DNA of 64,000 nucleotides from Candidatus Abyssobacteria bacterium SURF_5 (GCA_003598085.1 QZKU01000145.1:9123-73122); one strand, 5' to 3'; shown: positions 5,897 to 53,623, counted from the stretch's first letter. The notes: a model not told the origin generated them from the sequence alone. Made by a program: numbers and translations.

Positions 5897-5932
5897 GTCT
5901 CGCGCTTTTCAATTGAACTGGCAGAGAAGTTC

Positions 5933-6688: not shown

Positions 6689-6712
6689 GTCTCCCACAGG
6701 TTACCATGCATG

Positions 6713-12058: not shown

Positions 12059-13138
12059 ATGAGCAAGTTGAAGGAAAAAGCCATCTTCGGAGTTGTCGCC
12101 TTAGCTTTCCTGATTCCGATCTCGCTTGTCCAATCGGACATCGAGAGCGACACAGGAAGAATCACTTTCCTGCGATGGGTGGATAATCAAGAGGCTTACA
12201 GCCAGCAGGTGATCCAGCGCATCATCGTCGAACAGGACGAGCGCGACCCTGCGGAAACAGCCCTCTTTAATCAGGTAACGGAGCTCGGCCGCTCGTTAAA
12301 TCCCGATTTTTCGGAGCTTCCGGTGCCCGCTAAGTGGAAACTGATTAATCGGCCGGAATTCAACCCCTTATACATGCAATTCGTTGAATTGATCAGGCAG
12401 TCCAAGGCCTCCCTGATCGAGGGTGGAATCGAGTGGAGCAATCCCGATGTCAGCGCAAATGTCGGCGCCCTCGTGCTGGGGTTCAGAAAACTGGTTGCCG
12501 ATATGTTGTGGCTCAAGGTCGACGAGTACTGGCATCGCGGACAGGTGCAAAGAATGCTCCCAATGATGGAGACAGTGACCACGCTCGACCCCCATTTCAT
12601 CGAGGCGTACGCACTTGGGGCGTGGCACCTGGCCTATAACGTGACGGTCATGTTCCACTCCGCTGAAGAAAGAATGAAATATATCGAGCAGGGGGTCAGT
12701 CTCCTCAAGAAGGGCATCAAGAACAATCCCCGGAGCTCCAAGCTGTATGCGGAAATGGGATTCACCATTTACTTCCGCAAGCTCTCCGATTGGGAAAAGG
12801 CCGCGTATTATCTGGGCGAAGCGACAAAGTACGAGCACGAACCCTGGGTGGAGCGGGCATACGCCCTCTCGCTCGAGCGCTTGCGAGAAGAAGAAAAGGC
12901 GTTTGCGCTCCTGGAAGATTACGACCGCAGGCATCCGGACTTCAAGATGCAGAAGCTCACTATGAAGCGTCTGGAAAAGAAGCTCGAGGCCCGCAAGTTG
13001 GAGCGCGAAGGCGATCTTGAGGCTGCTTTCGAATTATGGCGGTTCCTGAAGGATGACGATCCCTCTGATTTCATCGCCCCGCAGGAATACCTGCGACTAA
13101 AAATGGAATTAGAGAAGGCTAACGGCCTCACGTCGTGA
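12059..13138 (+). CDS. Secreted/periplasmic hypothetical protein with TPR-like helical repeats, third gene of the ABC-2 operon
   Basis: The signal peptide KAIFGVVALAFLIPISLVQS follows the ATG at 12059, 5 nt after the permease stop. The repeated helical W/Y-rich segments are TPR-like. The ORF-track start at 12020 overlaps the upstream gene. Confidence 0.6.
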   Translation: MSKLKEKAIFGVVALAFLIPISLVQSDIESDTGRITFLRWVDNQEAYSQQVIQRIIVEQDERDPAETALFNQVTELGRSLNPDFSELPVPAKWKLINRPEFNPLYMQFVELIRQSKASLIEGGIEWSNPDVSANVGALVLGFRKLVADMLWLKVDEYWHRGQVQRMLPMMETVTTLDPHFIEAYALGAWHLAYNVTVMFHSAEERMKYIEQGVSLLKKGIKNNPRSSKLYAEMGFTIYFRKLSDWEKAAYYLGEATKYEHEPWVERAYALSLERLREEEKAFALLEDYDRRHPDFKMQKLTMKRLEKKLEARKLEREGDLEAAFELWRFLKDDDPSDFIAPQEYLRLKMELEKANGLTS

Positions 13139-17409: not shown

Positions 17410-17694
17410 ATGGACGAGAAGCTGGCCAGACTCGAAGAACAGATGAAGCGCTTGGTCAGCAGCTTCCGCGACGCCTGCGAGAAAAACGAGCACCTCCGGC
17501 GCCAGAACGAACGCCTGCTGAATGAGCTCCTGGAGAAAACGCGGCAGATGGAAGTGCTCGAAGAGCGCGGCGAACTGCTGCTTGAAGCGCAGGCGGAAAA
17601 GAAAAAGCTCGAAGCGCAGCGCGAACAGATCCGAAAAGAAATCAACGCCCTGCTCGAGCGAGTGCGTGCGCTGAAGGGCGAACAACACAGATAG
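17410..17694 (+). CDS. Small coiled-coil protein, ZapB-like
   Basis: 94 aa, entirely heptad coiled coil (LEEQMKRL...LLNELLEKTRQMEVLEE). It starts 5 nt after pheT and precedes zapA. Confidence 0.5.
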   Translation: MDEKLARLEEQMKRLVSSFRDACEKNEHLRRQNERLLNELLEKTRQMEVLEERGELLLEAQAEKKKLEAQREQIRKEINALLERVRALKGEQHR

Positions 17695-17804
17695 ACAAGA
17701 TGGGGACGGAAAATCTTCCCCCAGTTGTGCAGACGTCTTGAAAAAACTGTACGGTCTCTGTTGTCTTTAAGTTCTCCTTTGGTTTTCGAAAGGCGAAGAC
17801 GATC

Positions 17805-18116
17805 ATGAACCGACCCGCCGCCGTGACGGTCACCGTTCTCGGGACCGAGCTCAGTTTCAGAACCGAAGACCCCGAGTACATCAAACAGTTAGCCGCTTTT
17901 GTTGAAAACGAAATCCGCACAGTCGTGGATTCCGGAAAAATATCATCACAGACCAAGGCGGTTATCCTCGCGGCCTTTACCATGGCCGATGAATTGTTTC
18001 GGCTGCGCAAGGAAAAGGAACAGGTCTCCAAGCGAATCGAATCGATGCTTGAGATGGCATCAAATATGCACTGGGAGACTCCGGCGGCGCCGCCACATCC
18101 GGCCACGGAAATCTGA
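17805..18116 (+). CDS. zapA: Cell division protein ZapA-like
   Basis: 103 aa. VTVLGTELSFRTEDPEYIKQLAAFVENEI is ZapA-family sequence, and it is syntenic with the upstream coiled-coil gene. Confidence 0.65.
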   Translation: MNRPAAVTVTVLGTELSFRTEDPEYIKQLAAFVENEIRTVVDSGKISSQTKAVILAAFTMADELFRLRKEKEQVSKRIESMLEMASNMHWETPAAPPHPATEI

Positions 18117-18242
18117 GGAACACGGGAGCGATTCCACTCCGGAATCTCTTGCCGTCGCCAATTCGTTCGTACGGAATTTCGCTTTTCTTGCACCGAAATG
18201 TTCAAACAAGACTTATTCGCTTCAACCAGTGCAGGGAGAAAC

Positions 18243-19133
18243 ATGATCGAGATCGCCGACCGCATCTACTTCATCGAGTCCGAAAACAGAGGGCGCTATC
18301 CGAACTCGCACTCGCTGTTTGTCGATGACGATTTGGGTATGGTTATCGACCCGGCCTGCCGCGAAGAATTGATGCTTGAACTGGCTGCGAGTCATAAGAC
18401 GAGTATCATCCTCAACACTCACTACCACGAAGACCACAGGATCTACAATTACTGCTTCACCCGCGCACAGCTTTACACACATGAGCTCGATGCCCGCGGC
18501 TACGGCTCAATCGAGGACTTCATGCAGGATTTCTCGGTTGTCAACAGCGATACGCTCAAGAACTTCTGGCGCGATTTTCTGCTCGACAACTGCAAATACC
18601 GCCCCTATACAGTCGCTCAGACTTTTTCCGACGGCTTCCAGATCGACCTCGGACATACCGTTGTCAAAACGATTCATACCCCCGGCCACTCCGCAGGCCA
18701 CAGTTGCTTTTATTTCCCCAAGGAACAGGTGCTGTACCTGGGCGATATCGACCTCACCTCCTTCGGGCCATGGTACGCCAGCCGGAATTCCGATATCGAC
18801 GCCTGGCTGACCTCGATCGAGCGCGTCCGCCGGTTGAAACCTAAAATCGTGGTTACCTCGCATGGCGACGGCCTGGTGACTGAGAACCTCGACGCCCGAA
18901 TCCAGACGTATGCTAATACAATTCATCAGCGCGATAACCGCATCCTCGAGTTCCTGCAGCGCCCCCGCACAAAAGAGGAGATTCTGGACCTCGAAATCGT
19001 CTACCGGCGCAATCATAAATCACCCGACTCTTTCTTCTACTGGGATGACCGTATGATGATAGAAATGCACATTTTTCGGCTGGAACGGCAGGGTCGATTG
19101 AAAAGACTTGACAGAAATTATGTTATAGGATAA
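18243..19133 (+). CDS. MBL-fold metallo-hydrolase
   Basis: HYHEDH (HxHxDH) and the downstream H and D ligands are present. The start was moved to the ATG at 18243, which has a GGGAG ribosome-binding site; the ORF-track start at 18198 has none. Confidence 0.8.
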   Translation: MIEIADRIYFIESENRGRYPNSHSLFVDDDLGMVIDPACREELMLELAASHKTSIILNTHYHEDHRIYNYCFTRAQLYTHELDARGYGSIEDFMQDFSVVNSDTLKNFWRDFLLDNCKYRPYTVAQTFSDGFQIDLGHTVVKTIHTPGHSAGHSCFYFPKEQVLYLGDIDLTSFGPWYASRNSDIDAWLTSIERVRRLKPKIVVTSHGDGLVTENLDARIQTYANTIHQRDNRILEFLQRPRTKEEILDLEIVYRRNHKSPDSFFYWDDRMMIEMHIFRLERQGRLKRLDRNYVIG

Positions 19134-19198
19134 AATGTTCACTGATAACCTATATCCTGAGGCGGGGCTTCTTTCCTCGGTTACTCTCGGCAATTTTC

Positions 19199-19227
19199 TT
19201 GACATCGAATCAAAAAGGAAGTAAAAT
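19199..19227 (+). promoter_or_regulatory. Sigma-70 promoter TTGACA-17 bp-TAAAAT with a roughly 200-nt leader before the KAS gene
   Basis: -35 TTGACA at 19199-19204, a 17-nt spacer, and -10 TAAAAT at 19222-19227. The leader contains the hairpin CCGCTGT...ACAGCGG at about 19347-19379. Confidence 0.5.
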
Positions 19228-19437
19228 GTCTCATAAAAGGGGAGGGACGTAAAGTTTGGCCGCTGGTCGGTAGCAAAGAGGTACTTGATTTTTTGATGTA
19301 ATTACTTGCAGATACGCCACTTATAACCGGAGAATGTTTTCAGTCCCGCTGTCTAAGCACCCTCGCATGGAACAGCGGATCGATCCGGACCCGGCGGACA
19401 CATGGGACCGGGTAATCAGGGAGAAGGAGTAGGAGCG

Positions 19438-20730
19438 GTGAACAGGCGTTGCGTAGTGACAGGACTGGGCGTGGTTTCATCGGTGGGGATCGGCAAGGAA
19501 GCGTTTTGGGATTCACTCGTTCATGGACGTTCGGGCGTTTCCTATATTACGCGCTTCGATACATCAAAACTGCCGGTTCATCATGGCGGCGAAGTAAAGA
19601 ACTTCAATCCCACAGACTATATGGACGAACTCCGGGCGCAAATGTCCGGCCGTTACGTTCATTTTGCCGTTGCGGGCACAAAATTGGCGCTCGAGGACGC
19701 CGGCATCGAGCCTGATATGTATGACCGGTCCAGAATGGTCATGTATGGCGGCTCGACCGCGCCGGCGGCTGATTCTATCGAGAGCCACCTTCGAATCGCA
19801 ATCACCGACGACCCGTTCAATGCGCCCCCCTATGCGCTTGCCTCTATCGCAATGCATTCCGCCATAGGAGAAGCCGCCCAGACCGCAAATGTTTTCGATT
19901 CCTCGACCACAATCTCCACACACTGCACTTCCGGCCTGAACGCCATAGGGTTCGGACTCGATGAGATTCGCAAGGGTCGAAAGGATATTGTGGTGGCCGG
20001 CGCAACCGATTGTACGCTCACCTACTACGCTTTCATCAGCTATATCCTCGCGGGTCTGCTGGTGCCGGAGGAAGGGGTTCCACCCGAGAAGATCATGCGC
20101 CCGTATGACAAGAACCGTCGCGGCGGCGTGATGGCGGAGGGAGCGGGATTCCTCGTGCTTGAGGACCTGGAACATGCGCGCGCTCGCGGGGCTCACATTT
20201 ACGGCGAAATCATTGGACACGGGTATAAAGATAAAATCAACCTGTCGAAGTCGACAATGCTGACAATGTCCAGCGCCATCAGGGCGGCGCTTGCCAACGC
20301 ACGAGTAAGACCAACCGACGTGGACTACGTTCTGGCGAACGGCAATTCAACTATCGTGCAAGATAAGATGGAGACAAGGACCCTGAAGGAGGTATTCGGC
20401 GAGCACGCTTATCGATTGCCCGTGAGCGCCATAAAGTCAACGATTGGCATACCGAATTCAGCCATCGGTCCGATGCAGGTGATCGCTGCTTGCCTCGCGT
20501 TTGAATCCAACCTGATCCCTCCCACGATCAATTATGAAACCCCCGACCCCGAATGCGACCTCGACTACGTCCCAAATCACGCGCGGTTCAATCGGGTGAA
20601 TATGGCGGTTGTCAATAATTATGGCATGGACGGCGCCTGCGCCGCCGTACTCGTTAAGAGATACGGCAACGGGGAGGCCGTCTCATTTGGCGGCAGAGAC
20701 GGCGCATGCAAAAGTGACGGCGACAGCTGA
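19438..20730 (+). CDS. Beta-ketoacyl-ACP synthase II (FabF)-like protein with Cys retained but both catalytic His replaced
   Basis: VNRRCVVTGLG matches the FabF N-terminus, and a GAAGGAG ribosome-binding site precedes the GTG at 19438. The active-site Cys sits in STHCTSG (codon 19924-19926). The AHGTST His is replaced in ANGNST (Asn at 20338-20340). The KSMTGH His is replaced in KSTIGIPN (Ile at 20449-20451). The VPPTIN..CDLDYVP motifs are intact. Confidence 0.85.
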   Translation: MNRRCVVTGLGVVSSVGIGKEAFWDSLVHGRSGVSYITRFDTSKLPVHHGGEVKNFNPTDYMDELRAQMSGRYVHFAVAGTKLALEDAGIEPDMYDRSRMVMYGGSTAPAADSIESHLRIAITDDPFNAPPYALASIAMHSAIGEAAQTANVFDSSTTISTHCTSGLNAIGFGLDEIRKGRKDIVVAGATDCTLTYYAFISYILAGLLVPEEGVPPEKIMRPYDKNRRGGVMAEGAGFLVLEDLEHARARGAHIYGEIIGHGYKDKINLSKSTMLTMSSAIRAALANARVRPTDVDYVLANGNSTIVQDKMETRTLKEVFGEHAYRLPVSAIKSTIGIPNSAIGPMQVIAACLAFESNLIPPTINYETPDPECDLDYVPNHARFNRVNMAVVNNYGMDGACAAVLVKRYGNGEAVSFGGRDGACKSDGDS

Positions 20731-23277
20731 ATGGATCCGAAACCGATAAGCATTCTCGTTACTGCACTTTTCATTTTCATTCTCGGCACCTATGTCTTCG
20801 CCAAGAATTCCAAAAAGATCATTAATATCTCCTTCCTTGGCCTCGCCTATAGCTGCGGCCTGTGGGCGCTCGCGCTGTTCACCATCAGTATCGAAACCCG
20901 CTATGAGGTGTTGAAGTTTGCGGGCCATATGGCATTCGCCACCGGCGCGCTCCTCACCTGCAATTTCCTTCTGTTCGCGTATGTGTTCCCGGATAAAAGA
21001 GATGAATTCCCGCCGCTGCGAACACTGCTCATCATCTGTGCGCCGGGCGCTCTCATGGCGCTGCTCAGTTTTACGCCTTTTATCATGAAAGATATTGCGT
21101 ACGAAGGCGAGAAGGTCAGGCCGGTATACGGGGCCGGCATCTACATATTGATGTTGTACCACGTCGCCTGCGCCTTCATCGGTTTTTTCCTGCTGGCGCG
21201 GAAATTCCTCAAAACGAAAGTCCGCTTTGAGAGGGTGCAACTGAAATACACCTTCTGGGGAACCCTGCTTTCGGCCATCGGAATCGTCACGTTTGCGCTG
21301 CTTCTGCCCATTGCCGGCGTCTCTCAGTATTCGGGTCCCTTGAGCGCAGTCTTTATCGTGATTGCCAGCGCAAGCCTATCATACGCCATCGTGCGGCACC
21401 GCCTGATGGATCTGGGCGTGGTTTTCAGAAATGTCCTCATCTATATCGGAACGGTCGCGGCGCTTGGCGCCGTTATGGGACTGGTGACTCTCTTCACCCC
21501 TGTCCTGCGCCTGCAGCTCGAAGCAGTTGCCTTCCTCTCGGTTCTGGCGGCTTCGCTCCTGGTGTATCCTGTGCGCAACGGCATCGAGACGCTCGTGGAC
21601 AGGTTCTTCTTTCACGGCCGCTACAATTATCAGGCCGCCCTGACCGAGTTCAGCCATTCGATGACGAAAATCCTGGACCTCGAAGACCTGCAGAACCGGA
21701 TCGTCCATGAGGTGGCCTCCATCCTGCAGGTAAAAAGCGCCACCATCTTGCTTCACGAGACGGGCGAGAAGAAATACACGGTGAGAGCCGCGATACCCAT
21801 AGAACTTGCTGATGCTCACCATGAGATCGGCGCAGACAGCCTCATTATCCGGCAGATGATGCAGGATCACACGCTGCTCGTGAAAGAGGAAATGAAACGC
21901 TCGCTTCCGGTCTCCCGATTTCAGCCGATCGAGAGCGAGTTCGACCAGATACACGCAGAGGTGATCATCCCGCTGTTCTATCGCGAAGATCTGCTCGGAC
22001 TGCTCACATTGGGCGAGAAAATCTCGTCCGATATCTACTCGGTCGAGGACATCAATCTGCTCGTCACGCTCGGCAATCAGGCCGCCGTCGCGCTGGAGAA
22101 CGCACTGCTGCACCACACCGTCATCATGCTCAAGAATCACAACGACAACATCCTCAAGTACATGAGCAGCGGAGTCGTCGCCATCGACAAGAACCGGATG
22201 ATCAACACCTGCAACGACAAAGCCAGGGAAATTCTGCGACTCCCCCAGGACGGCGTCATCCATGGCAAGATCGATCTGCTTCCGTCTCCCCTGCGCGAGA
22301 TGCTTTCCGACACCCTCGCCGGCAAGAACCGGTACTCGAATCAGGAGGTGCAGATATTATCACCCAAAGGCTCGATCTGTTATCTGAGCGCAAGCACATC
22401 GCTGATCAAGGAAGAGAAGGGCGTCGTGACCGGCGCACTGCTGGTGGTAAACGACCTGACCGAGATCAGGATTCTTGAGGGCGAGATGTGGCGGGCAGAC
22501 AAGCTGGCCTCTCTGGGCACACTTGCCGCCGGCATGGCGCACGAAATCAAGAACCCGCTCGTCTCCATCAAGACCTTCGCCCAGTTGCTGCCCACCCGCT
22601 TCGAAGATACGGAATTCCGCGAAAAATTCTCATCCATAACGGTTGACGAGGTCGAGCGAATAAATTCTCTGGTGGAAAAACTCCTCGAATTCGCGCGACC
22701 GACGGCGCCGCTTTTTGAGACGGCTGACATCATCGACCTCATCGAAGAGGTCCTGCTCCTGCTCAGCAACGAGACGTCGAAGGTGGGCGTGACGGTCGTC
22801 CGTAATTTTGACGTCGATTCCGCTCCCATCGTCTGCGATAAGAGCCAGTTTAAGCAGGCCCTGCTCAATTTGTGCCTGAACGCGCTGCAGGCGATCGAGG
22901 CGTCCCGCAACAATTCCCATAAGGAATTGCGCGTCAGCGTCTCGCTCAGGAAAAGCAGATACTCCGGCGGGACTTCCCGCGACCAGGTCTCGGAGATGTT
23001 CTACGGCCTGGACATACCGGCCACCATCGATGACGCCCAGACCGTTGTCATCAAGGTGCGTGATTCAGGACAGGGCATCAGTCGCAAGAACCTCGGCAGG
23101 ATTTTCGATCCGTTCTTTACGACGAAAGAAAAAGGGCTGGGGCTGGGACTGGCCGTCGTTCACGGAATCATCAAGGAACACTCGGGCAGCATCACCGTAG
23201 ACAGCAAAGAGAATGTGGGGACCGAGTTCACCATCTCGCTGCCGGTGACACAGATATTCGCGAAGGAGAGGGCATGA
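20731..23277 (+). CDS. Sensor histidine kinase: N-terminal 7-8 TM sensor domain, GAF, PAS, HisKA, HATPase_c
   Basis: 848 aa. The first 270 aa or so are polytopic. The H-box reads MAHEIKNPL, and G1 (DSGQGI) and G2 (GLGLGLAVV) boxes are present. Its ATG at 20731 abuts the KAS stop (TGAATG). Confidence 0.9.
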   Translation: MDPKPISILVTALFIFILGTYVFAKNSKKIINISFLGLAYSCGLWALALFTISIETRYEVLKFAGHMAFATGALLTCNFLLFAYVFPDKRDEFPPLRTLLIICAPGALMALLSFTPFIMKDIAYEGEKVRPVYGAGIYILMLYHVACAFIGFFLLARKFLKTKVRFERVQLKYTFWGTLLSAIGIVTFALLLPIAGVSQYSGPLSAVFIVIASASLSYAIVRHRLMDLGVVFRNVLIYIGTVAALGAVMGLVTLFTPVLRLQLEAVAFLSVLAASLLVYPVRNGIETLVDRFFFHGRYNYQAALTEFSHSMTKILDLEDLQNRIVHEVASILQVKSATILLHETGEKKYTVRAAIPIELADAHHEIGADSLIIRQMMQDHTLLVKEEMKRSLPVSRFQPIESEFDQIHAEVIIPLFYREDLLGLLTLGEKISSDIYSVEDINLLVTLGNQAAVALENALLHHTVIMLKNHNDNILKYMSSGVVAIDKNRMINTCNDKAREILRLPQDGVIHGKIDLLPSPLREMLSDTLAGKNRYSNQEVQILSPKGSICYLSASTSLIKEEKGVVTGALLVVNDLTEIRILEGEMWRADKLASLGTLAAGMAHEIKNPLVSIKTFAQLLPTRFEDTEFREKFSSITVDEVERINSLVEKLLEFARPTAPLFETADIIDLIEEVLLLLSNETSKVGVTVVRNFDVDSAPIVCDKSQFKQALLNLCLNALQAIEASRNNSHKELRVSVSLRKSRYSGGTSRDQVSEMFYGLDIPATIDDAQTVVIKVRDSGQGISRKNLGRIFDPFFTTKEKGLGLGLAVVHGIIKEHSGSITVDSKENVGTEFTISLPVTQIFAKERA

Positions 23278-23278
23278 T

Positions 23279-25288
23279 ATGGATGTAGTCGTCATTGCAT
23301 CAAATGAAAACAGCATTCAGGAATCTCTCCGGATGCTGCTCGGCGAACGATACATGGTTCTGGTGGCGCGCTCGCTCCCGCAGCTCATCAATATCGTAAA
23401 CGATCACCCGGTTGATGTGGTCATTCTCGATGAGTTCCTTGGGGCGGAGAACTGCGCCTGGGCGTTCGACCAACTGCGCTCGGTTTCGCCCGAGATTACC
23501 TGCATCGTGCTGGCGCTCCAGACCATATCCGAGGCGGCCAGCGAGCTGCGCGCCAAAGGCGCATACGATATCGTGAGCAAACCCTTTGACCGCGAGGTCC
23601 TCCTGACCGTTATCTCGCGGGCGGTCGAAAGATCGCGCCTGATGGCGCGGCTGGCGGCGGCAAAACAACCCGTCCGCACCACCGAACCGCTCCCCTTCGA
23701 CGCCGTCGAACCGTCGAGCGAGCGAAAGGAGATGCTCGATTCGCTGCGACGATTCCTGCGGGCCGTCACCGACGTGCTTGCGCCCGAGCGCCTGCATGCC
23801 CTCGTGCTCGATGCGGTCGTCGAGATGTTCTCGCTCAATAAGGCCGTCCTGCTCCTCTGGAACGAGGAAAAACAGCGGATGGTGATGAAGGCGGCGGTGG
23901 GCCTCCAGGTGACCGGCCTCGAAGGGTACGAGGCGCCGTGGAAAAGCCTGATGCAGTGGCTCCACCGGCACGACCAGATTCTCAATCTTGACGACCCGGC
24001 GCGGGAGGCCGAGCCGGGCGAGATGCTCGAAGTGCGGAAAGAAATGGCCCTGCTCCAAGGCCGCCTGTGCGTGCCGCTGACGGCAAAAGGAAAAATGAGC
24101 GGCGTGCTCGTGCTGGGCAGGAAGATAACCGGAAAACGCCTCTCGGACGTCGAGATCGAGTTCCTGTACCTGCTTTCCCAGCAGATCGCCGCAATCATCG
24201 AAAATGCCCGGCATCATCGCGCTGTCCTCGTACAGAAGGAACGATACAAAGACATCCTGCAGGGCGTTACTTCCGGCCTCATCGCGACCGATGCCGCCGG
24301 CAGGCTCCTTCTTCTGAATAAGGCGGCCGAGCAAATCCTGAAAGTAAAGGCGGCGGATGTCACCGGACATGACGTCCAGCGGATCGGCTCGATGTTCGCC
24401 GATATCGTCAATCGCACGTTGCGCGAAGGAAAATCGTTTTGCAGGCATGAGGTGACCGACCCGGCCACCAAAGCGCTCCTCGGCATCAGCACCTCGGTCT
24501 TGACCGACGACGCCGGGAAACCCGTCGGTGCGGTCGCGCTCTTCACCGATCTGTCCACCGTCAAGTCCCACGCCGGAATGGATGTCGATGAAGCATGGCA
24601 ACGCTGCGCGCTGTGCATGGCGCAGGAGATCAAGAACCCGCTGGTCGCCATCCGGACCTTCACCCAATTGTTTCCACAGAATTATGCGGACGAAAAATTC
24701 CGAACAGAATTTGCTCAAATTGCGCTCAAGGAGATAGATAAGCTCGATGCCGTCGTCGAGAAACTCCTTAAATTCTCTCAGCCGCTGCAACTTCGTCCGG
24801 AACAGGGCAACATCAATAACCTTATCGAAGAGGCCCTCAACCAGGCCCTGCAGGATGCGGACAAGCCAAACGTGGTGATTAACAAAAATTTCGAGACGGC
24901 CAACGGCATTGGAATGTTCGACAGGAATCTGCTCGGCGAGGCTTTTGTCCAGGTATTCCGGAATGCGCTGGATTCGATGCCTTCGGGCGGAACCCTGAAC
25001 ATCTCGGCTGCAACTCGAACCGGCGAGACCTCCGCCGCCGGCGCCCAGGGAAATGGGTCCTCGGTGCCGACCGTCACGGAAATTTGTATTTCCGACTCCG
25101 GCTCCGGAATCGCACCGGAGGATATGGGCAACCTGTTCAAGCCGTTCTATTCCAAGAAGGTCAAAGGGATGGGCCTCGGCCTGGCGATATCCCGGAAGAT
25201 CATTCAGGGTCATAAAGGCGACATAAGCGTCTTGAGCGAACCGAACCGAGGGACGACCGTGAAGGTAGTTTTACCACATGGAGCATAA
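23279..25288 (+). CDS. Histidine-kinase-like protein lacking the phospho-acceptor His (H-box MAQEIKNPL): degenerate N-terminal receiver, GAF, PAS, DHp-like, intact HATPase_c
   Basis: 669 aa. The receiver acidic pocket DD is replaced by SN (VVVIASNEN), but the Asp of ILDEF and the Lys of SKPF are retained. The DHp His is replaced by Gln. N-box, G1 and G2 are present. The start lies 2 nt after the upstream kinase stop. Confidence 0.85.
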   Translation: MDVVVIASNENSIQESLRMLLGERYMVLVARSLPQLINIVNDHPVDVVILDEFLGAENCAWAFDQLRSVSPEITCIVLALQTISEAASELRAKGAYDIVSKPFDREVLLTVISRAVERSRLMARLAAAKQPVRTTEPLPFDAVEPSSERKEMLDSLRRFLRAVTDVLAPERLHALVLDAVVEMFSLNKAVLLLWNEEKQRMVMKAAVGLQVTGLEGYEAPWKSLMQWLHRHDQILNLDDPAREAEPGEMLEVRKEMALLQGRLCVPLTAKGKMSGVLVLGRKITGKRLSDVEIEFLYLLSQQIAAIIENARHHRAVLVQKERYKDILQGVTSGLIATDAAGRLLLLNKAAEQILKVKAADVTGHDVQRIGSMFADIVNRTLREGKSFCRHEVTDPATKALLGISTSVLTDDAGKPVGAVALFTDLSTVKSHAGMDVDEAWQRCALCMAQEIKNPLVAIRTFTQLFPQNYADEKFRTEFAQIALKEIDKLDAVVEKLLKFSQPLQLRPEQGNINNLIEEALNQALQDADKPNVVINKNFETANGIGMFDRNLLGEAFVQVFRNALDSMPSGGTLNISAATRTGETSAAGAQGNGSSVPTVTEICISDSGSGIAPEDMGNLFKPFYSKKVKGMGLGLAISRKIIQGHKGDISVLSEPNRGTTVKVVLPHGA

Positions 25289-25289
25289 G

Positions 25290-26885
25290 ATGCATAAAAT
25301 TCTTGTGGTCGATGACGAATTAAGCGTGCGCGAAGCGTTGCGCATCATCTTGAAGGACAACTTCGAGGTTATCCTGAAGGATTCCGCCGAAGCGGGACTC
25401 GAATACTTGAATTTCAATGAAGTGGATCTCGTGTTTCTCGATATCCTGATGCCGGGGATGTCGGGGCTCGAGGCGCTCAAGATCATCAAAACGCGGCCGC
25501 AGCCGCCGGAGGTAGTCATCGTTACGGCGACGCGTACCGTAAAGAACGCCGTCGAGGCGATGAAGCACGGCGCATTCGAATACGTAACCAAGCCCTTCGA
25601 CGTCGATGAGATCAAGTTGATCGCCGAGCGCGGAATCGAAAATCATCACCTCGTCCTTGAGTGCTCATCGCTCAGGCAGCAGATGGAAAACGAGAAGGAG
25701 CGGTTTTACAAGGAGCTCGAGGGCAAGGTGCGCGAGCGGACGGCGGAGCTCGAGGAAGCCAACCGGAAACTGCGGGAGACACATGAGCAGCTGGTGCGGT
25801 CGGAAAAACTGGCGTCTCTCGGCGAGTTGGTCGCAGGGGTCGCCCACGAACTCAACAATAAGCTGCTGCCCGTCCTCGCGTACGCGCAACTGCTGAAAGA
25901 GCAGAAATTCCCCGACGGCATCCTGCGCTACGTCGATACCATTGAGCGTTCGGCCTCGGCCGCGGCCTCGGTCGTCAGTTCGCTGCTGAATTTCTCGCGT
26001 CCCTCAAGCGCCACCAGAAACCCGGTGGACCTGAACGCGACCATGCGGGAAACCCTTTCTTTGCTCGATTACAAGATCAAGGCCGGCCGCGTGCGCGTCA
26101 AAGTCGAGCTCGAGGAAAGGATTCCGCTTACCATGGCGGATGAAAAGCAGATCGCCCAGGTGTTCCTCAACATCATCAATAATGCGTTTCAGGCGATGGA
26201 GCCGAACGGAGGCGAACTGAACATTCGCTCCACGCGAAAAGGCGACAACATCTTCTTCACGTTCACCGATACCGGCTGCGGGATTTCCGAGGAACACATG
26301 CTGAAAATCTTCGACCCCTTCTTCTCAACGAAAGGCAGCGGAGGCACCGGCCTCGGCCTCAGCGTCTCGCACGGATTGATTAGCGCCCACAAGGGCGAGA
26401 TCACCGTAAAAAGCAAAGTGGGCAAGGGGACCACGTTCACCATTCGACTTCCCATCACGAGAGTCATGGAAGAAAGCGCTGTCAAGGAGGAACCGATCCG
26501 CTATACTCCTCAGAGGACAAAGCCCCGCGTTCTCGTCGCGGAGGATGATCCCGATTGCATGCTGGCGATCACCGATATTCTGAAGGCCGAACATGAGGTT
26601 ATTTCGGTGTGCAATGGCCAGGAGGCGGTGAAAAACCTGAAGAAGGAGAATTTCGACCTCCTGATTGTGGATTGCAGAATGCCGGGCTTGAACGGGGTGG
26701 AATTGTATCGGTGGCTCATCGAGAACAAGAGCGAGCTCCAGCGGCGCGTCATCTTCATGACCGGCGATATTTTCGTGCCCGAAATCAAGTCCTTCCTAGA
26801 GAAATCCGGCTGTCCGTACATCACGAAACCGTTCGTTATGGATGACTTCAAGCGAACGATTACCGCCGCTCTCACGGCGCCATAG
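25290..26885 (+). CDS. Hybrid histidine kinase REC-HisKA-HATPase_c-REC
   Basis: The N-terminal receiver carries DxxMPGMSG. The H-box reads VAHELNNKL. The C-terminal receiver carries LLIVDCRMPGLNG. The start was taken at the ATG at 25290, which has a GGAG ribosome-binding site and lies 2 nt after the upstream stop; the track start at 25278 overlaps. Confidence 0.9.
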   Translation: MHKILVVDDELSVREALRIILKDNFEVILKDSAEAGLEYLNFNEVDLVFLDILMPGMSGLEALKIIKTRPQPPEVVIVTATRTVKNAVEAMKHGAFEYVTKPFDVDEIKLIAERGIENHHLVLECSSLRQQMENEKERFYKELEGKVRERTAELEEANRKLRETHEQLVRSEKLASLGELVAGVAHELNNKLLPVLAYAQLLKEQKFPDGILRYVDTIERSASAAASVVSSLLNFSRPSSATRNPVDLNATMRETLSLLDYKIKAGRVRVKVELEERIPLTMADEKQIAQVFLNIINNAFQAMEPNGGELNIRSTRKGDNIFFTFTDTGCGISEEHMLKIFDPFFSTKGSGGTGLGLSVSHGLISAHKGEITVKSKVGKGTTFTIRLPITRVMEESAVKEEPIRYTPQRTKPRVLVAEDDPDCMLAITDILKAEHEVISVCNGQEAVKNLKKENFDLLIVDCRMPGLNGVELYRWLIENKSELQRRVIFMTGDIFVPEIKSFLEKSGCPYITKPFVMDDFKRTITAALTAP

Positions 26886-26890
26886 GCGGA

Positions 26891-29224
26891 ATGCGACCTG
26901 CACATATGATTGCAAACCTCGTCAGCAAGCGCCCGTGGTATATCCTCATGTTTTCCGTTCTTGTCACTCTTGTGCTCGCAGTCGGAATACCCCGCCTCAA
27001 AATGCGCCCTTTCTTCGAGGGAGATCTCCCGGCCACCGATCCCGTCCTCGTCGCCAACGAGCACTATAGCTCCATATTCGGCAAGGACGAGGTGGCTTAT
27101 CTGGCGCTGGTGAGGGATGATTCCATTTATCACGCCGACACGCTCGAAAAAATCGCCGCAATTACAGAAGAATTGAATTCGCTCGATCATGTGCTGGCCG
27201 AGCAAACGCTCAGCCTGGCCACCGCACGGAAAGTGACCTGGCGCGATTGGGGGCTCGACGTGCGAAAACACCTGTCGCCGCCGCCCGAATCGTCCGATGA
27301 CATCGAGCGCCTGCGCCAGGACGTGCGACACGATCCCGATATCTACGACCGGCTCGTTTCGAAGGACGAAAAGGCGACGCTCCTTATCATCAGGCTCCAG
27401 CCGGGCTATAACCAGCGGCAGTTGTATCGGTCGCTTCATGCAATCGCAGATGAGTATGCCGGACCCGAGCGGATTTATCCTTTCGGACACCAGGTTATGA
27501 ATGAAGAGGCGAATCTGGGAATCCTCCACGATGCCCGCGTCCTCGGTCCTGCGGCGCTGCTGCTCATGGCGGTCGGCATCTCGATTTTCTTCCGGTCGCC
27601 CCGCCTGGCGATCGGACCGGTGCTGATGGTGACCATGAGCATCGTGTGGACGATCGGCTTCATGCATTACATCCGCTTCCCCATGTCGGTGCTCAGCTCT
27701 TCGATACCTGCAATGCTGATAGCGATCGGCAGTTCTTACATGATCCACGTGATTTACAGCTACATCGAGCAGTCATCGAAGGGAAACGCGGCGGAAGCGA
27801 TGGCGCAGGGGATTCGAAAGGTGGGTCCGCCGATCCTGCTTGCAGCCGTAACCTCAATGGTCGGCTTCCTCACCTTGATCGTTTTCAAGATTCTCACCAT
27901 ACGCGAGTTTGGGGTCACGGTGGCGATCGGCGTGGGGTTTTGCGCGCTCCTCGCCCTCATGGTGCTGCCGTCGATTATTATCTTGCAGAAGAAGTCCGTT
28001 CCACCTCGATCCATTAAGAACATGGATGTTCTCGATAGATTTCTGGCGTGGATCGGGCACGTCGGGGTGAACCATCGATACCGGGTGGCGATCGCGGGGT
28101 TGGCGCTTTTGATAGTATCCGGCCTGGGCGTATCTCGCATCAAGATCGGATACGCTCCCGAGGAGATTTTCCCGGAGAATCACCCGGCGCGCACCGTCGT
28201 CTCCCTCTTCATCAACGAGTTCAACGGGCCGTACTCGATCAACGTGATGTTTTCGACTACCGAAGTCGACGGGCTGAAGTCGCCCGACGTTCTGCGGCGG
28301 ATTGACGATTTTCAGGCGTTCGCCGAGAGCCTGTCGAAGGTCAAACATTCGACCTCGATCGTCAATATCGTGAAAAAGATGAACCGCATCCTCAACGAGG
28401 ATGATCCTGCTCACGACAAGGTTCCTGAAAGCAGAGAAATGGTGGCGCAGTTGTTGCTGCTCCACTCGATGACACAGGACCCCGTGCAATTCGAGAACCT
28501 GGTGGACTACGATATTCAGCGCTGCAAAGTCGCAATTGCCACGACCGCCATCGACAGCATGCAGCTCGAAGCCATCTTTGATCGGCTTGCCGAATATTGC
28601 AGCACGCACTTCGGCGAAGATGTAACGGTCTCTTTCGGCGGACGCAGCCTGATCTGGATGGCGATGAACGATTACATCATCCGCGGCAAGATCATGAATA
28701 TCATCATGAATACCGTGCTCATCTGGATCATCTGCGCAGTCGCCTTCCGTTCGGTCCGATTTGGACTTGTCGGAATCATGCCGCTCACGCTGGCGACTCT
28801 CGCAACTTTTGGGCTGATGGGGCATCTTGGAATCAGGCTCGATACGGCCACCGCGGTTTTAACCGGCATCTCGGTTGGTGTCGGAGTTGATTTCGCCATC
28901 CATTTCATTTCTCGCCTGCGAAGCGAGGCGCGCACAGCTCAAACACTGAATGACGCGGTCGGGGTTACCGTTATCAAAAGCGGACGCGCCATCGTCTTTG
29001 ACGCTGCTTCTAATATCCTCGGGTTCATGACGTTCATCTTTTCCGGCTTTGGGCCGGTGCGCAACCTGGGCATCCTGATGTGCTTCACCATGGTGGCGTG
29101 CCTCCTGCTCACCCTCCTCCTTATTCCAACCCTCCTTGCGCTCTTCCCGATACCGTTCCGCCGTTTACGGGAAGAAACGCTCTTTCTCCGGCCCGTCTCC
29201 GTCGAAGCAACACGGCCTGATTGA
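26891..29224 (+). CDS. MMPL/RND-superfamily exporter (sterol-sensing-domain type, 12 TM with two periplasmic loops)
   Basis: 777 aa. The topology has two hydrophobic 6-TM blocks separated by large soluble loops. It is the last gene of the KAS-kinase operon. Confidence 0.85.
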   Translation: MRPAHMIANLVSKRPWYILMFSVLVTLVLAVGIPRLKMRPFFEGDLPATDPVLVANEHYSSIFGKDEVAYLALVRDDSIYHADTLEKIAAITEELNSLDHVLAEQTLSLATARKVTWRDWGLDVRKHLSPPPESSDDIERLRQDVRHDPDIYDRLVSKDEKATLLIIRLQPGYNQRQLYRSLHAIADEYAGPERIYPFGHQVMNEEANLGILHDARVLGPAALLLMAVGISIFFRSPRLAIGPVLMVTMSIVWTIGFMHYIRFPMSVLSSSIPAMLIAIGSSYMIHVIYSYIEQSSKGNAAEAMAQGIRKVGPPILLAAVTSMVGFLTLIVFKILTIREFGVTVAIGVGFCALLALMVLPSIIILQKKSVPPRSIKNMDVLDRFLAWIGHVGVNHRYRVAIAGLALLIVSGLGVSRIKIGYAPEEIFPENHPARTVVSLFINEFNGPYSINVMFSTTEVDGLKSPDVLRRIDDFQAFAESLSKVKHSTSIVNIVKKMNRILNEDDPAHDKVPESREMVAQLLLLHSMTQDPVQFENLVDYDIQRCKVAIATTAIDSMQLEAIFDRLAEYCSTHFGEDVTVSFGGRSLIWMAMNDYIIRGKIMNIIMNTVLIWIICAVAFRSVRFGLVGIMPLTLATLATFGLMGHLGIRLDTATAVLTGISVGVGVDFAIHFISRLRSEARTAQTLNDAVGVTVIKSGRAIVFDAASNILGFMTFIFSGFGPVRNLGILMCFTMVACLLLTLLLIPTLLALFPIPFRRLREETLFLRPVSVEATRPD

Positions 29225-30430: not shown

Positions 30431-30949
30431 TCATCCCATCAATTCCGAAATCTTTTTGTTCAGCTTCCGCCGGCGGCGCACGTTTGAGCCGAGAAGAACA
30501 GTCCACCGCAACACGTAGTAAGCGACGATTCCCAGAAACGCGCCATAGAGCGCTCCCCACATGATGTCCGGCGTCGCGCCCACGAGCGCGCCCGTCACCT
30601 TGAAGGCGGTATTCGCATCATCGACTCGCTTCGACAGGTCCTCGCCGAGCACGATCCTGAGGGAATCGCCCAACCGCTGCTCTTCGCCGATCAGCGGATA
30701 TAACGCCTTTGCGGCCTGATATTCAGCGCCGGCTATCAAGCCTATGAAGGGCGCTCCATAGCGCAGGACGAATCCGCTCGCTCCCGAAAACAGCCTGCCG
30801 GCCAACGAGCGCCTCCGCAATGGACCGTAGCGGCGGGCCATCTCACGCACCTCGTCACGGTCGATTGTGGCAGGAAGATAATCAAGCTCCCGGTCGAGCA
30901 ACTGGTTCCGCGCAATGTTCCGCTTCAATCGCTTTCCAACCGTCCCCAT
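30431..30949 (-). CDS. Hypothetical protein (172 aa, C-terminal TM helix), immediately upstream of and co-oriented with the orphan ABC ATPase
   Basis: It is the only long ORF in this span on either strand and lies 4 bp from the next gene. I recognise no domain. Confidence 0.45.
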   Translation of the reverse strand: MGTVGKRLKRNIARNQLLDRELDYLPATIDRDEVREMARRYGPLRRRSLAGRLFSGASGFVLRYGAPFIGLIAGAEYQAAKALYPLIGEEQRLGDSLRIVLGEDLSKRVDDANTAFKVTGALVGATPDIMWGALYGAFLGIVAYYVLRWTVLLGSNVRRRRKLNKKISELMG

Positions 30950-33865: not shown

Positions 33866-34258
33866 TTAGGAAGCCTCCTCACGAGGACATGCCAGCGCTT
33901 CCTCTACCGCCGCGAGAAATTTATCCGGATCGACGGGCTTATCAAACACCGCGGCCGGTTTTCTGACGGCGAGGTCGCGCCCGGCAAGGCCGCTGACCAC
34001 GATGATGGGCGTATGCTTCAGCTCCTTGTCTCTGGATAACTTGCGCGCGAAATCCGTGCCGGTCCTCTTCGGCATCAGAAGGTCGAGAATCACAAGATCC
34101 GGCTTTTCGCGGCGAGCCGCTTCGTAGGCCTCCTCCACGTTGTACGTCGGAATCGGTTGGTAGCCGTTCTTTCGCAAGAGCGTCTCGAAGAAGACCACTA
34201 CGTGTTTCTCGTCATCCAGAATCAGAATCTTCTTCTTTTCTTGATCGCCGTTCTTCAT
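33866..34258 (-). CDS. Stand-alone response regulator receiver protein
   Basis: 130 aa. ILILDDEKH, LDLLMPKRTG, IIVVSG and K are all present. It is a close paralog of the receiver at 48096-48659. Confidence 0.85.
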   Translation of the reverse strand: MKNGDQEKKKILILDDEKHVVVFFETLLRKNGYQPIPTYNVEEAYEAARREKPDLVILDLLMPKRTGTDFARKLSRDKELKHTPIIVVSGLAGRDLAVRKPAAVFDKPVDPDKFLAAVEEALACPREEAS

Positions 34259-35921: not shown

Positions 35922-37061
35922 ATGGCTTCTGTTTCCCCGATGCTTGAAATAACCGACGCCATCATGGAGGTCGGCGGCAAGACTCTGAAGGTATGCATGC
36001 AGTGCGGCACGTGCACGGGAGTATGTCCCTGGAATCTGGTGGACGAATTCAGCCCGAGGCTCTTGATCCGGCTGGTCAGCCTGGGCATCGAAGGATATGA
36101 ACAGGACAGCCTGTGGAATTGCGTCACCTGCGCCACGTGCGTCACCCGGTGCCCCCGTGGAATCGATATCATCGATGTCATCAGATCGACGCGGAGCGTC
36201 ATGCTCGAGAGCGGAATCGTGCCGCCGGCCTATCGCGTGCCTCTCGCAAGCCTGCGCAATGAGGGGAATCCGTGGAGCTCTCCCCGCTCGGAACGCGCGG
36301 ATTGGGCGGCAAAATTGAATATTCCCGAGTTCTCCGAGGCGACCGAACATCTGCTTTTCGCCTGCTGCACCCATGCGTATGACGCCCGAAACAGGAAGGT
36401 CCTGAAGGAGACGGCCGAACTGCTTCTAAAAGGAGGCGCCTCCGTCGGCATTATCGGAACCGAGGAAAGCTGCTGCGGCGACCAGGCGCATAAATGCGGC
36501 GCTCTGGAAACATATACGGCGCTGCAGGAAGCCAATACCGAGCTTTTTGCCGCTCGCGGAGTCAGAAAGATCATCACCACGTCTCCTCATTGCCTGAATC
36601 TGTTCATCAAGGAGTATAAAGGCGAGTTCGATGCAGTCCATTACACGCAAGTCTTCGCGAAGCTCATCAAGGAGAAAAAGCTTGTTCCTGCAAAACCGGT
36701 CCCATTGAAGGTCGCCTATCACGATCCCTGCTACCTGGGCCGCCACAACAACATTTATGATGAGCCGAGAGACGTTCTCCGCAGCATTCCCGCACTGGAG
36801 TACGTGGAACTTCCCCGATGCAAGCAAAGGAGCCTGTGCTGCGGCGGAGGCGGAGGCGGCATCTGGTCTGAAATCGAAGTCGAAAAACGTTTCAGCGTGC
36901 TGCGCATACGGGAGGCGAAGGAAGCCGGCGCAAACGTGATAGCCACCGCGTGCCCGTTCTGCATGATCATGCTCGAGGACGGCCTGAAGGCTTCAGGCAT
37001 CGATGAGAGCGAGATGAAGATTCTCGATGTGAGCGAGTTACTCTATGAATCGGTCGAATAA
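35922..37061 (+). CDS. HdrD-like (Fe-S)-binding protein with two 4Fe-4S ferredoxin motifs and two CCG domains
   Basis: CMQCGTCTGVCP and CVTCATCVTRCP ferredoxin motifs. The CCG motifs are CCG...C and CCGGGGGG...CPFC. Confidence 0.85.
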   Translation: MASVSPMLEITDAIMEVGGKTLKVCMQCGTCTGVCPWNLVDEFSPRLLIRLVSLGIEGYEQDSLWNCVTCATCVTRCPRGIDIIDVIRSTRSVMLESGIVPPAYRVPLASLRNEGNPWSSPRSERADWAAKLNIPEFSEATEHLLFACCTHAYDARNRKVLKETAELLLKGGASVGIIGTEESCCGDQAHKCGALETYTALQEANTELFAARGVRKIITTSPHCLNLFIKEYKGEFDAVHYTQVFAKLIKEKKLVPAKPVPLKVAYHDPCYLGRHNNIYDEPRDVLRSIPALEYVELPRCKQRSLCCGGGGGGIWSEIEVEKRFSVLRIREAKEAGANVIATACPFCMIMLEDGLKASGIDESEMKILDVSELLYESVE

Positions 37062-37076
37062 AACGGCGGGGAAATC

Positions 37077-40508: not shown

Positions 40509-40929
40509 GGAGTTCGAACCCACAATTGTTGCTTTCCTCTGCAACTGGTGCACGTTCACCGCTGCGGACCTCGCCGGCACGTCGCGCCTCAGTTATCCCG
40601 AGAACGTCAAGATAATCCGCATGATGTGCAGCGGCATGGTCGATCCGCTCTATGTTCTCAAAGCCTTCATGGAGGGGGCGGACGGCGTTTTCATCGGAGG
40701 ATGCTGGCCCGGCGACTGCCATTATATCAACGGCAACCTGAAGGCGCGCCGGCGAGTGGCGTTGCTTACGGAAATTCTGAAGCAGTTCGGAATCGAGGAG
40801 GACAGGTTCTGGCTGCGCTGGGTTGCCGCCAGCGACGGCGTCATGTTCCAGGAGTTCTCCAAACAGATGACTGAAAAGCTCCGACAAATGGGGCCGAGCC
40901 CGCTCAGTGTCAATCAAACAATCGCGTGA
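40501..40929 (+). CDS. MvhD-like (methyl-viologen-reducing hydrogenase delta subunit family) protein
   Basis: 142 aa with the MvhD-type Cys pattern (CNWC...C..GC...C). It overlaps the HdrL stop by 8 nt. Confidence 0.8.
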   Translation: MSKEFEPTIVAFLCNWCTFTAADLAGTSRLSYPENVKIIRMMCSGMVDPLYVLKAFMEGADGVFIGGCWPGDCHYINGNLKARRRVALLTEILKQFGIEEDRFWLRWVAASDGVMFQEFSKQMTEKLRQMGPSPLSVNQTIA

Positions 40930-40951
40930 GGATTCGCTGAGGAGAATTGAG

Positions 40952-42088: not shown

Positions 42089-42097
42089 GAGAAACCA

Positions 42098-46585: not shown

Positions 46586-46618
46586 AGCCTGCTTGAGATT
46601 CATGGGAAACGTGATTTT

Positions 46619-53592: not shown

Positions 53593-53623
53593 GTGTTACA
53601 TTCTCCGTGAGGTCACACGACCC

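Follow-up and report, generated by a model that had tools for sequence, protein, structure and literature searches.

Introduction

Several bacterial signalling systems place the gene of a lipid-handling enzyme beside that of a membrane sensor kinase. In the RpfF-RpfC-RpfG system of diffusible signal factor (DSF) and in CqsA-CqsS a polytopic kinase reads a hydrophobic ligand, while in the Des pathway of Bacillus subtilis (des-desK-desR) the gene of a lipid-modifying enzyme, des, adjoins desKR. DesK senses the state of the bilayer (PMC11237406, PMC6879721). We describe here an operon that resembles these systems, from a 64,000-nucleotide (nt) stretch of DNA of Candidatus Abyssobacteria bacterium SURF_5 (QZKU01000145.1:9123-73122; the whole stretch analysed is called the window, and coordinates are those of the window), in which the gene for a ketosynthase (KS)-like protein derived from FabF is followed by genes for three proteins of the histidine kinase (HK) type and for an MMPL transporter.

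The likeness to Rpf and Cqs lies in a lipid-handling enzyme gene beside a polytopic sensor kinase, and one relative of the operon (locus L020, below) ends in a regulator with a receiver (REC) and an HD-GYP domain like RpfG (PMC4159695). The operon differs from both in that its enzyme has a KS fold, being neither a crotonase nor a pyridoxal phosphate-dependent enzyme, in that its sensor is of a HisKA_7TM-GAF type, and in that an extra degenerate kinase is present. From the Des pathway it is set apart by DesK's five transmembrane (TM) helices and lack of GAF and PAS domains, by the enzyme (a desaturase), and by the two-component make-up of that pathway, which has no transporter. The first kinase resembles in architecture PrsK of the PrsK/PrsR pair (a multi-TM region followed by GAF, HisKA and HATPase); a Nitrospirota relative aligns end to end with the PrsK model TIGR02916, and sigma-54 NtrC-type regulators like PrsR are encoded at two related loci (L035 and L073). 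All scores against that model, however, lie between 116.6 and 154.6 (cut-off 300), and the neighbourhood, as seen in the window, has neither exosortase nor PEP-CTERM genes.

Our preferred reading, which we hold tentatively and at slightly less than an even chance, is that the operon is the Candidatus Hydrogenedentota (Abyssobacteria-like) version of an undescribed module found in several phyla, in which a KS-like protein and a PrsK-like kinase with a seven-TM (7TM) region and a GAF domain, usually joined by a degenerate REC-GAF-PAS kinase, would form a lipid-linked sensing circuit. Literature on this gene combination, on HisKA_7TM and on Abyssubacteria yielded no description of the operon.

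A conserved five-gene operon

Open reading frames (ORFs) and searches of the window's proteins against Pfam and NCBIfam place five same-strand genes between positions 19438 and 29224:

19438-20730, + strand: KS-like, FabF-derived protein of 430 aa; GTG start; two-domain ketoacyl synthase
20731-23277, + strand: HK1, membrane sensor kinase; HisKA_7TM, GAF, PAS, HisKA, HATPase_c
23279-25288, + strand: HK2; degenerate receiver, GAF, PAS, HisKA (DHp), HATPase_c
25290-26885, + strand: HK3, hybrid kinase; REC, HisKA, HATPase_c, REC
26891-29224, + strand: MMPL/RND inner-membrane transporter; HAE3-like, with a sterol-sensing-domain core

The tight, unidirectional packing and the gene order that an earlier note on this DNA had described are both confirmed, with junctions of 0-5 nt. 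The stop codon of the KS-like gene (TGA, 20728-20730) abuts the HK1 start at 20731 in the sequence TGAATG (20728-20733), HK2 and HK3 meet at TAA-G-ATG (25286-25292, the HK2 stop occupying 25286-25288), and HK3 and the MMPL gene are separated by 5 nt (TAG-GCGGA-ATG, 26883-26893), all as previously given; the gap between HK1 and HK2, reported as 2 nt, is of 1 nt (TGA-T-ATG, 23275-23281). The domain order had likewise been read correctly from gene to gene, save that the N-terminal receiver of HK2 had been missed. The KS-like gene more likely begins at GTG 19438 than at an in-frame ATG at 19402, because a GGAG-rich sequence lies 5' of the former and the N-termini of homologues agree with it. For HK3, which has a further in-frame ATG at 25278, the most likely start is ATG 25290, because the resulting length of 531 aa is that of its orthologues. 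The window's KS-like protein is about 10-17 aa longer at its C-terminus than most orthologues (430 against 413-421 aa), through an extension (20671-20730) that reaches the start of HK1; orthologues have a spacer of 18-103 nt at this site, which suggests that an older stop codon has been read through in the window.

The order KS-HK1-HK2-HK3-MMPL was found in all ten informative loci, with no counter-example. These are the window itself, L001, L004/L005, L086, a JGI contig, L088, L089 (frameshifted), L090, L091 and L105, from sources labelled Candidatus Abyssobacteria, Hydrogenedentota and, in the case of one metagenome-assembled genome, 'Lindowbacteria'. The neighbourhood is therefore not unique to this genome, nor was its His-less KS clade ever found within an ordinary fab cluster; the earlier note had named the opposite result (a neighbourhood confined to this genome, with the clade elsewhere in fab clusters) as one that would refute its proposal. 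The upstream pheST-zapA block is syntenic in these loci as well. The interval between zapA and the KS-like gene varies, with genes for an AMP-ligase, a CoA-transferase, an MBL-fold protein and a B12-radical-SAM protein coming and going, and the gene 3' of MMPL varies too; the 1-nt HK1-HK2 and 5-6-nt HK3-MMPL junctions are kept in all loci except L090, where the latter gap is 27 nt. Identity to the window ranges over 54-70% for the KS-like protein, 59-69% for HK1, 55-65% for HK2, 67-78% for HK3 and 57-63% for MMPL, and is 61-68% for PheT. Because the flanks vary while the junctions are kept and the identities are at or above the PheT level, we regard the five genes as a selected unit and not as mere inherited order. 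These comparisons show all five predicted proteins to be under purifying selection comparable to that on PheT, and show the genes, as judged from their junctions and order, to form a single unit, conserved and tightly coupled, that is led by two likewise conserved promoter-like sites of the sigma-70 type.

A further locus, L003 (CP070779), was considered as a minimal pair of KS and 7TM genes and rejected, because N runs interrupt the locus and its genome includes an MMPL orthologue, annotated 'partial'; it was left out of the count as uninformative. This record (CP070779.1, a Hydrogenedentota single-contig record of 3.5 Mb) has N runs at about 8950-9060, in the MBL gene, and at about 12250-12350, in HK1, and the apparent gene truncations in it are assembly or masking artefacts. 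A homologue search with the 7TM region of HK1 gave two matches only and showed that the L003 gene is annotated 'partial'.

The ketosynthase-like protein

The KS-like protein has the two-domain ketoacyl-synthase fold (PF00109 and PF02801, at 107.3 and 85.7 bits). Its best NCBIfam model is TIGR03150 (fabF), which it matches at 334.2 bits, below the equivalog threshold of 493.75, and it is about 40% identical to B. subtilis FabF (PDB 4ls5, E = 6.5e-84). Residues are numbered here as in Escherichia coli FabF, using a sequence whose motif positions checked out. In FabF, Cys163 is the acyl-accepting nucleophile, both histidines of the Cys-His-His triad act in decarboxylation and condensation, and Phe400 gates the site (bioRxiv 10.1101/2021.02.13.431092).

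Cys163, Lys335, Asp311 and Glu314 are kept in the window's protein, as in FabF/KAS II enzymes, with which it also shares the two-domain thiolase fold. It differs from them in lacking the triad histidines, in scoring below the family cut-off and in standing outside any fab cluster: His303 is Asn and His340 is Ile, in line with the earlier description of a crippled ketosynthase, and Phe400 is Met, Gly401 is Asp and Asp265 is Lys. The stretch H268-x-T270-x-P272, which helps to hold the phosphopantetheine arm, is absent, the gating loop is rewritten, and small residues occupy the pocket positions of Ile108 and Phe133.

These substitutions define a clade. A homologue search returned about 45 clusters of 54-100% identity; below these the identity falls sharply, and the next sequences, at no more than 46%, are ordinary FabFs. 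Within the 46 clade sequences Cys163 and Ile340 are invariant, Asp401 is present in 45, Asn303 in 44 and Lys or Arg at position 265 in 42, and the Phe400 gate is Met or Leu; at least 44 of the 46, like the window's protein, do not have the Cys-His-His triad of FabF. (A DNA-pattern scan of metagenomes gave 17 matches, two of them true clade members.) Because the clade is distinct and the substituted residues are fixed within it, the predicted site is not a decayed one but a rebuilt active site with invariant residues of its own, and one to which, on these residues, the canonical Cys-His-His mechanism is barred. With Cys163 kept and both histidines lost, acyl loading may survive, while elongation of the FabF type is predicted not to. 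The earlier proposal that the protein 'makes' a lipid by condensation does not fare well on this evidence, both histidines of the canonical decarboxylative step being gone.

Two groups of triad-altered ketosynthases offer partial precedents. The KS0 domains of trans-acyltransferase polyketide synthases (PKSs), which are expected to accept an acyl chain and pass it on without condensation, also keep the Cys and lack the catalytic His; they are domains in PKS modules with flanking acyl carrier proteins (ACPs), whereas the KS-like protein is free-standing, at 430 aa, beside kinases. Chain-length factors (CLFs) and the anammox protein amxFabFmut are, like it, FabF homologues with a broken triad, but they lose the Cys and are encoded beside an active KS, whereas here the Cys is kept (46/46) and there is a single KS gene per locus.

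In a neighbour-joining tree, all KS sequences without His340 fell in one clade in 160 of 200 bootstraps and the Hydrogenedentota group was recovered in 200 of 200; the KS pair from loci L014 and L020 formed a separate group. Stand-alone KS proteins with C-H-N, C-H-Q, C-H-M or C-N-I triads (written as the residues at positions 163, 303 and 340) made up at least nine clusters at 50% identity among the top matches when 1.84 billion representatives were searched with a profile; the figure is a minimum, since the match list was filled by giant multi-KS polyketide synthases. Among other KS proteins, P0067 (571 aa, 22 member sequences) has a canonical C-H-H triad and combines a PilZ domain (PF07238) with the KS in precomputed Pfam assignments, and is another link between a KS and signalling, in this case by cyclic di-GMP; eight more C-H-H KS proteins are N-terminally extended (P0264, P0291, P0301, P0308, P0314, P0318, P0322 and P0337).

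The kinases and the transporter

HK1 and HK3 are HisKA-type kinases with canonical H, N, G1, F and G2 boxes, and HK1 has the PrsK-like architecture described above (116.6 bits to TIGR02916). HK2 is paralogous to the cytoplasmic portion of HK1 (28% identity over GAF-PAS-DHp-CA, E = 1e-64). Its N, G1, F and G2 ATP-binding boxes are intact, and its H-box reads MAQEIKNPL against MAHEIKNPL in HK1, so that Gln replaces the phospho-accepting His. The label of pseudo-kinase given to HK2 in the earlier note is not upheld as a defining feature: Gln stands at this position in the window, L001, L086, L089, L090 and L105, while three of the nine orthologues (L004, L088 and L091) keep the His. All orthologues, like the relatives from other phyla, have A-S-N/S-E in place of the acidic pair of the HK2 receiver; the receiver's Asp is kept in every sequence examined, and its Lys in the Hydrogenedentota orthologues, L111 and L035. 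In the Nitrospirota and Verrucomicrobiae counterparts of HK2 it is instead the ATP-binding boxes that are degenerate or missing. The loss of the His is lineage-specific, and a midpoint-rooted neighbour-joining tree hints, weakly, at two or more independent losses. We infer that HK2 is conserved without needing to autophosphorylate, and that it may have a modulator role. DivL and RetS are His-less or degenerate kinases that modulate the partner kinases CckA and GacS, and HK2 is like them in lacking the phospho-accepting His (six of nine orthologues) or the ATP-binding boxes (Nitrospirota) and yet being conserved beside a bona fide kinase; it differs in its pseudo-REC-GAF-PAS make-up, and its interaction with a partner is putative.

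HK3 is the best conserved protein of the operon, with 67-78% identity among orthologues. The receivers encoded by the third gene of the module in other phyla match its first receiver, REC1, best (34-51% identity, 82-109 bits, vs 38-50 bits for REC2). REC1 is the positional orthologue of the receiver of the module's response regulator, in which, to judge by these matches, a kinase-receiver unit has in this lineage taken the place of a sigma-54, HTH or HD-GYP output.

The last gene encodes a member of the MMPL superfamily, with PF03176 matched in two stretches (152.9 bits) and PF12349 at 58.7 bits. It has the 12 TM helices, the pair of MMPL repeats and the sterol-sensing-type core of the RND proteins HpnN, HAE3 and MmpL, but falls below both subfamily cut-offs (232.9 vs 351.9 for TIGR00921, HAE3; 129.2 vs 751.85 for TIGR03480, HpnN), matches HpnN structures at only about 39 bits, and has Tyr in place of the TM4 Asp. 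Its matches among solved structures, Patched and HpnN, are at about 40 bits. Homologues form about 36 clusters at 57% identity or more, after which identity falls to 31%; the nearest outgroup, at 31%, belongs to a TetR-MMPL-LolA-like-DUF1302 operon without KS or kinase. The Asp of TM10 is invariant (33/33), while the TM4 Asp of the outgroup has become an invariant Tyr, a pattern that is compatible with proton-driven transport. The earlier note had treated the transporter as integral to the module, a view that does not extend beyond this lineage: judged from the loci compared, MMPL is an add-on limited to the Hydrogenedentota version, and other versions carry a predicted FadL-type outer-membrane channel.

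Related loci in other phyla

A scan of genome contigs with the clade alignment picked up motifs common to all FabFs and gave 80 loci, all of them outside the clade and at 34-41% identity; a second search of these 80, with tblastn, yielded five kinase-linked loci. The two nearest outgroup KS sequences that could be placed on contigs (L111 and JGI 3300075153) show about 42% identity and carry C-H-Q and C-H-N triads. The gene orders at these loci are as follows (B12-rSAM, B12-binding radical-SAM protein):

L111: FadL (- strand), then B12-rSAM, KS, B12-rSAM, 7TM-GAF-PAS kinase, REC-GAF-PAS kinase, REC-HTH_8
JGI 3300075153: B12-rSAM, KS, GAF kinase (no recorded 7TM match), REC-GAF-PAS kinase
L035, Lentisphaerae; triad C-H-I, with GIPQN like the window's GIPNS: KS, 7TM-GAF-PAS kinase, degenerate REC-kinase, NtrC-type regulator
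L026, Thermodesulfobacteriota; triad C-H-Q: KS, 7TM-GAF kinase
L014, Nitrospirota; triad C-H-H: FadL (- strand), then KS, ACP, unknown, 7TM-GAF kinase, GAF-PAS-DHp protein, REC-PAS kinase
L020, Nitrospiraceae; triad C-Y-H: KS, ACP, thioester reductase, 7TM kinase, GAF-PAS-DHp protein, REC-HD-GYP
L073, Verrucomicrobiae; triad C-H-H: GAF kinase, KS, GAF-PAS-DHp protein, NtrC-type regulator, FadL

The core of a KS-like protein and a 7TM-GAF kinase, as predicted from domain content, recurs in at least four other phyla and so in at least five in total, and a degenerate kinase accompanies the KS and the kinase in all examined loci but one. A 7TM-GAF kinase was recorded with the KS at L111, L035, L026, L014, L020 and L073. 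The earlier view of the operon as a real arrangement with neither a fab nor a pks layout is thus upheld, both by its conservation and by these relatives. Neither an AcpP nor a FabG gene was found near the KS at any of the five kinase-linked genome loci, against 36 of the 80 loci of the generic FabF set, taken as a control, at which both are present.

Genes for B12-binding radical-SAM proteins lie directly 5' of the KS-like gene (L088, 8516-9985; L091, 4082-5551; L087, 9-779; L111, 2730-4394), and L111 has a second one 3' of it (5632-7032); the window has none. The L091 protein matches TIGR04072 ('lipid biosynthesis B12-binding/radical SAM') over its full length, at 233 bits vs a cut-off of 360, and these neighbours also resemble the hopanoid C-3 methylase HpnR, below cut-off. 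Taken together, the accessory genes found elsewhere (ACP, thioester reductase, B12-radical SAM, FadL, MMPL) would fit a hydrophobic or lipid compound, and the genes that neighbour the KS-like gene always have to do with lipids or hydrophobic substances.

Promoters, leader and flanking genes

The region upstream of the KS-like gene holds the following features:

18198-19133, + strand: MBL-fold hydrolase gene, a frequent upstream neighbour of doubtful membership, outside the promoter-defined unit
19108-19136, + strand: promoter-like site P1, TTGACA-17-TAAAAT, overlapping the MBL-fold stop codon through its -10 element
19199-19227, + strand: promoter-like site P2, TTGACA-17-TAAAAT, an exact consensus
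19228-19437, + strand: 5' leader of about 200 nt, without detectable conserved structure

P2 is the promoter that the earlier note had placed at 19199, and it is exact; that note did not mention P1, a second copy with the identical consensus. The two sites, 91 nt apart, are the only perfect matches to TTGACA-17-TAAAAT in the window. With one mismatch allowed, three matches were found against a chance expectation of 0.08, and no shuffle gave three. P2 (CTTGACAT...AGTAAAAT) is kept 124-239 nt 5' of the KS-like gene in L001, L003, L086 and L090, and L091 has a P2-like site 5' of its inserted B12-rSAM gene, which sits 15 nt before the KS gene. By an exact-pattern scan P1 is kept in place, partly in the spacer, in L001, L003 and L086, where P2 too is partly kept in the spacer, and by alignment L090 has it with a TAATAT variant of the -10 element. 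The tandem arrangement of P1 and P2, 68-91 nt apart, recurs in L001, L003 and L086, and in the window the -10 hexamer of P1 holds the TAA stop (19131-19133) of the MBL-fold gene.

The leader, about 100-210 nt long among the loci, had been described as structured. Its folding energy is no better than that of shuffled sequences (z = +0.9), an Rfam search gave no match even at E = 1, and five orthologous leaders showed no consensus base pairs. The idea of a riboswitch or other structured leader was rejected on these three grounds.

Upstream of the operon lie pheS, pheT, a 94-aa ORF, zapA and the MBL-fold hydrolase gene; downstream, a gene for a UgpC-like ABC ATPase is convergent with it. The MBL-fold gene is missing at L086 and L090. 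It was dropped as an operon member together with the AMP-ligase and CoA-transferase genes, all three being present in some loci only and 5' of the conserved promoters. No DNA-binding response regulator is encoded within or beside the operon, and the window's sole sigma-54 activator, at 48772-50151, carries PAS instead of a receiver. Two stand-alone receiver proteins are encoded downstream of the operon, at distances of 5 kb (33866-34258, - strand) and 19 kb (48096-48659, + strand); their match to the HK3 receivers is weak (27-37 bits), and so they give no sign of being the missing output.

Elsewhere in the window, an unusually large ORF of 1746 aa (54389-59629, - strand) has two stretches that match the DnaA-type ATPase family PF00308 (169 bits) and a weak NACHT match. 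A redox cluster at 35922-45199 (+ strand), resembling heterodisulfide reductase and MvhD and comprising a CCG domain, two large Pyr_redox_2/4Fe-4S proteins and FlpD, fits an anaerobic, possibly acetogenic or sulfur-cycling host. ORFs of 172-667 aa without a Pfam match at the thresholds used lie at 45956-47959 (-), 53543-54334 (+), 59898-60872 (+), 30431-30949 (-) and 17642-18265 (-), the last of which overlaps zapA on the opposite strand and may not be a gene.

Discussion

The reading that we prefer can be set out as a sequence of steps. The KS-like protein would take a fatty-acyl or related hydrophobic group on Cys163 and transfer or release it without decarboxylative elongation of the FabF type; in sister lineages, B12-radical-SAM enzymes, an ACP or a thioester reductase may serve the same position alongside the KS. 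Within the bilayer, the 7TM domain of HK1 would read the lipid so formed, or the change that it causes in the membrane; HK1 would then phosphorylate REC1 of HK3, the latter replacing the sigma-54, HTH or HD-GYP regulator of other phyla. HK2 would act as a modulator with no need of a His of its own, and MMPL would move the lipid out of the inner membrane. The final output of the relay is not encoded in the operon. A cell-cell signal in the manner of Rpf or Cqs and a membrane-lipid homeostasis in the manner of Des both fit these steps, and our analysis cannot separate them.

Several points count against this picture. It is drawn from sequence comparison, in organisms that are all uncultivated, and the substrate, product and catalytic competence of the Cys-Asn-Ile site are putative. 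An AlphaFold2 model of the KS-like protein had a mean pLDDT of 57.6, too poor for a pocket or fold search, and was not used. The ten five-gene loci represent one lineage, so that part of their conserved gene order is inheritance, and the roughly seven loci of the wider survey were opportunistic finds and not a systematic census. Finally, the 64-kb window encodes no ACP, fab gene, acyltransferase or output regulator, which extends to the whole window the earlier remark that the operon has no ACP.

A strong form of the earlier proposal would have the KS-like protein still condense, through substitute residues (such as Asn303 and Asn342, in a FabH-like Cys-His-Asn logic), and produce a beta-keto lipid autoinducer for export by MMPL and detection by HK1, in a self-contained quorum-type circuit. 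Sister clades do have C-H-N or C-H-Q triads, and the C-H-N triad of KAS III enzymes and chalcone synthases is compatible with condensation. A G-x-P motif is common to the GNPVA of C-H-N members and the GIPNS of the window clade, the Nitrospirota versions have their own ACP and thioester reductase, and one version ends in REC-HD-GYP, as Rpf/DSF does (PMC4159695). We nonetheless consider condensation unlikely, since the window clade has lost both histidines, has other residues in place of the phosphopantetheine-anchoring H-x-T-x-P and has a rewritten gating loop, while the operon lacks an ACP or tailoring gene and there is no sign of secretion or autoinduction. The translational coupling of the KS and HK1 genes (TGAATG here, a 4-nt overlap in L035) suggests stoichiometric partners and would suit a different role, that of a non-enzymatic or self-acylating co-sensor that binds HK1 or HK2 and so informs the kinases of the acyl-ACP or acyl-CoA pool, with the transporter as the regulated output. 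The stepwise decay of the triad, from C-H-H through C-H-Q, C-H-N or C-H-I to C-N-I, while the linkage to kinases persists, and the want of a dedicated ACP in the window, point the same way. The invariant Cys163 and Lys335 and the newly fixed polar residues argue for chemistry beyond binding, however, and the B12-rSAM, ACP and reductase neighbours of the relatives imply a biosynthetic role; we find a co-sensor quite improbable.

Two other explanations are less probable still. The five genes might be neighbours through inherited synteny and act independently of each other, as the conserved pheS-pheT-zapA block upstream in the same loci could suggest. That is very hard to square with a five-gene block that stays intact while both of its immediate flanks vary, with junctions of 0-6 nt, and with a KS-kinase linkage that recurs in other phyla among unrelated flanks. 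The least probable of the explanations weighed makes the KS-like protein a partner of the CLF type, forming a heterodimer with the housekeeping FabF and shifting its product profile. PDB 9s5h, which we take to be the structure from a recent preprint on anammox bacteria, is the third-best sequence match among solved structures. Triad-mutated FabF homologues form heterodimers of the KS/CLF type in those bacteria (bioRxiv 10.64898/2026.05.19.726425). CLFs and amxFabFmut lose the Cys that is invariant here, however, and KS and CLF genes are adjacent, whereas no second KS was found at any locus.

The main interest of these findings lies in the linkage of KS and kinase across phyla more than in the single operon. 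The rebuilding of the FabF active site, stepwise and maintained by selection with the Cys always kept, points to a non-condensing chemistry on the KS scaffold, and in HK2 a conserved kinase has lost its phospho-accepting His, probably more than once, with the gene retained. The organisms being uncultivated, the present value of the module is as a generator of hypotheses, and its proteins are soluble or ordinary membrane proteins. It also offers a genomic handle on what the HisKA_7TM or PrsK-type domain may sense, the two census papers that mention the domain naming no ligand for it. A bolder view, which we regard as rather unlikely, is that the loci belong to a widespread, unrecognised class of lipid-signalling circuit in which a rebuilt KS (with B12-rSAM proteins, an ACP and a reductase in some phyla) makes a hydrophobic messenger. 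FadL or MMPL proteins would carry this messenger, HisKA_7TM would read it in the membrane and the degenerate kinase would modulate the response. If that were so, the messenger would be the first ligand class for the HisKA_7TM sensor family.

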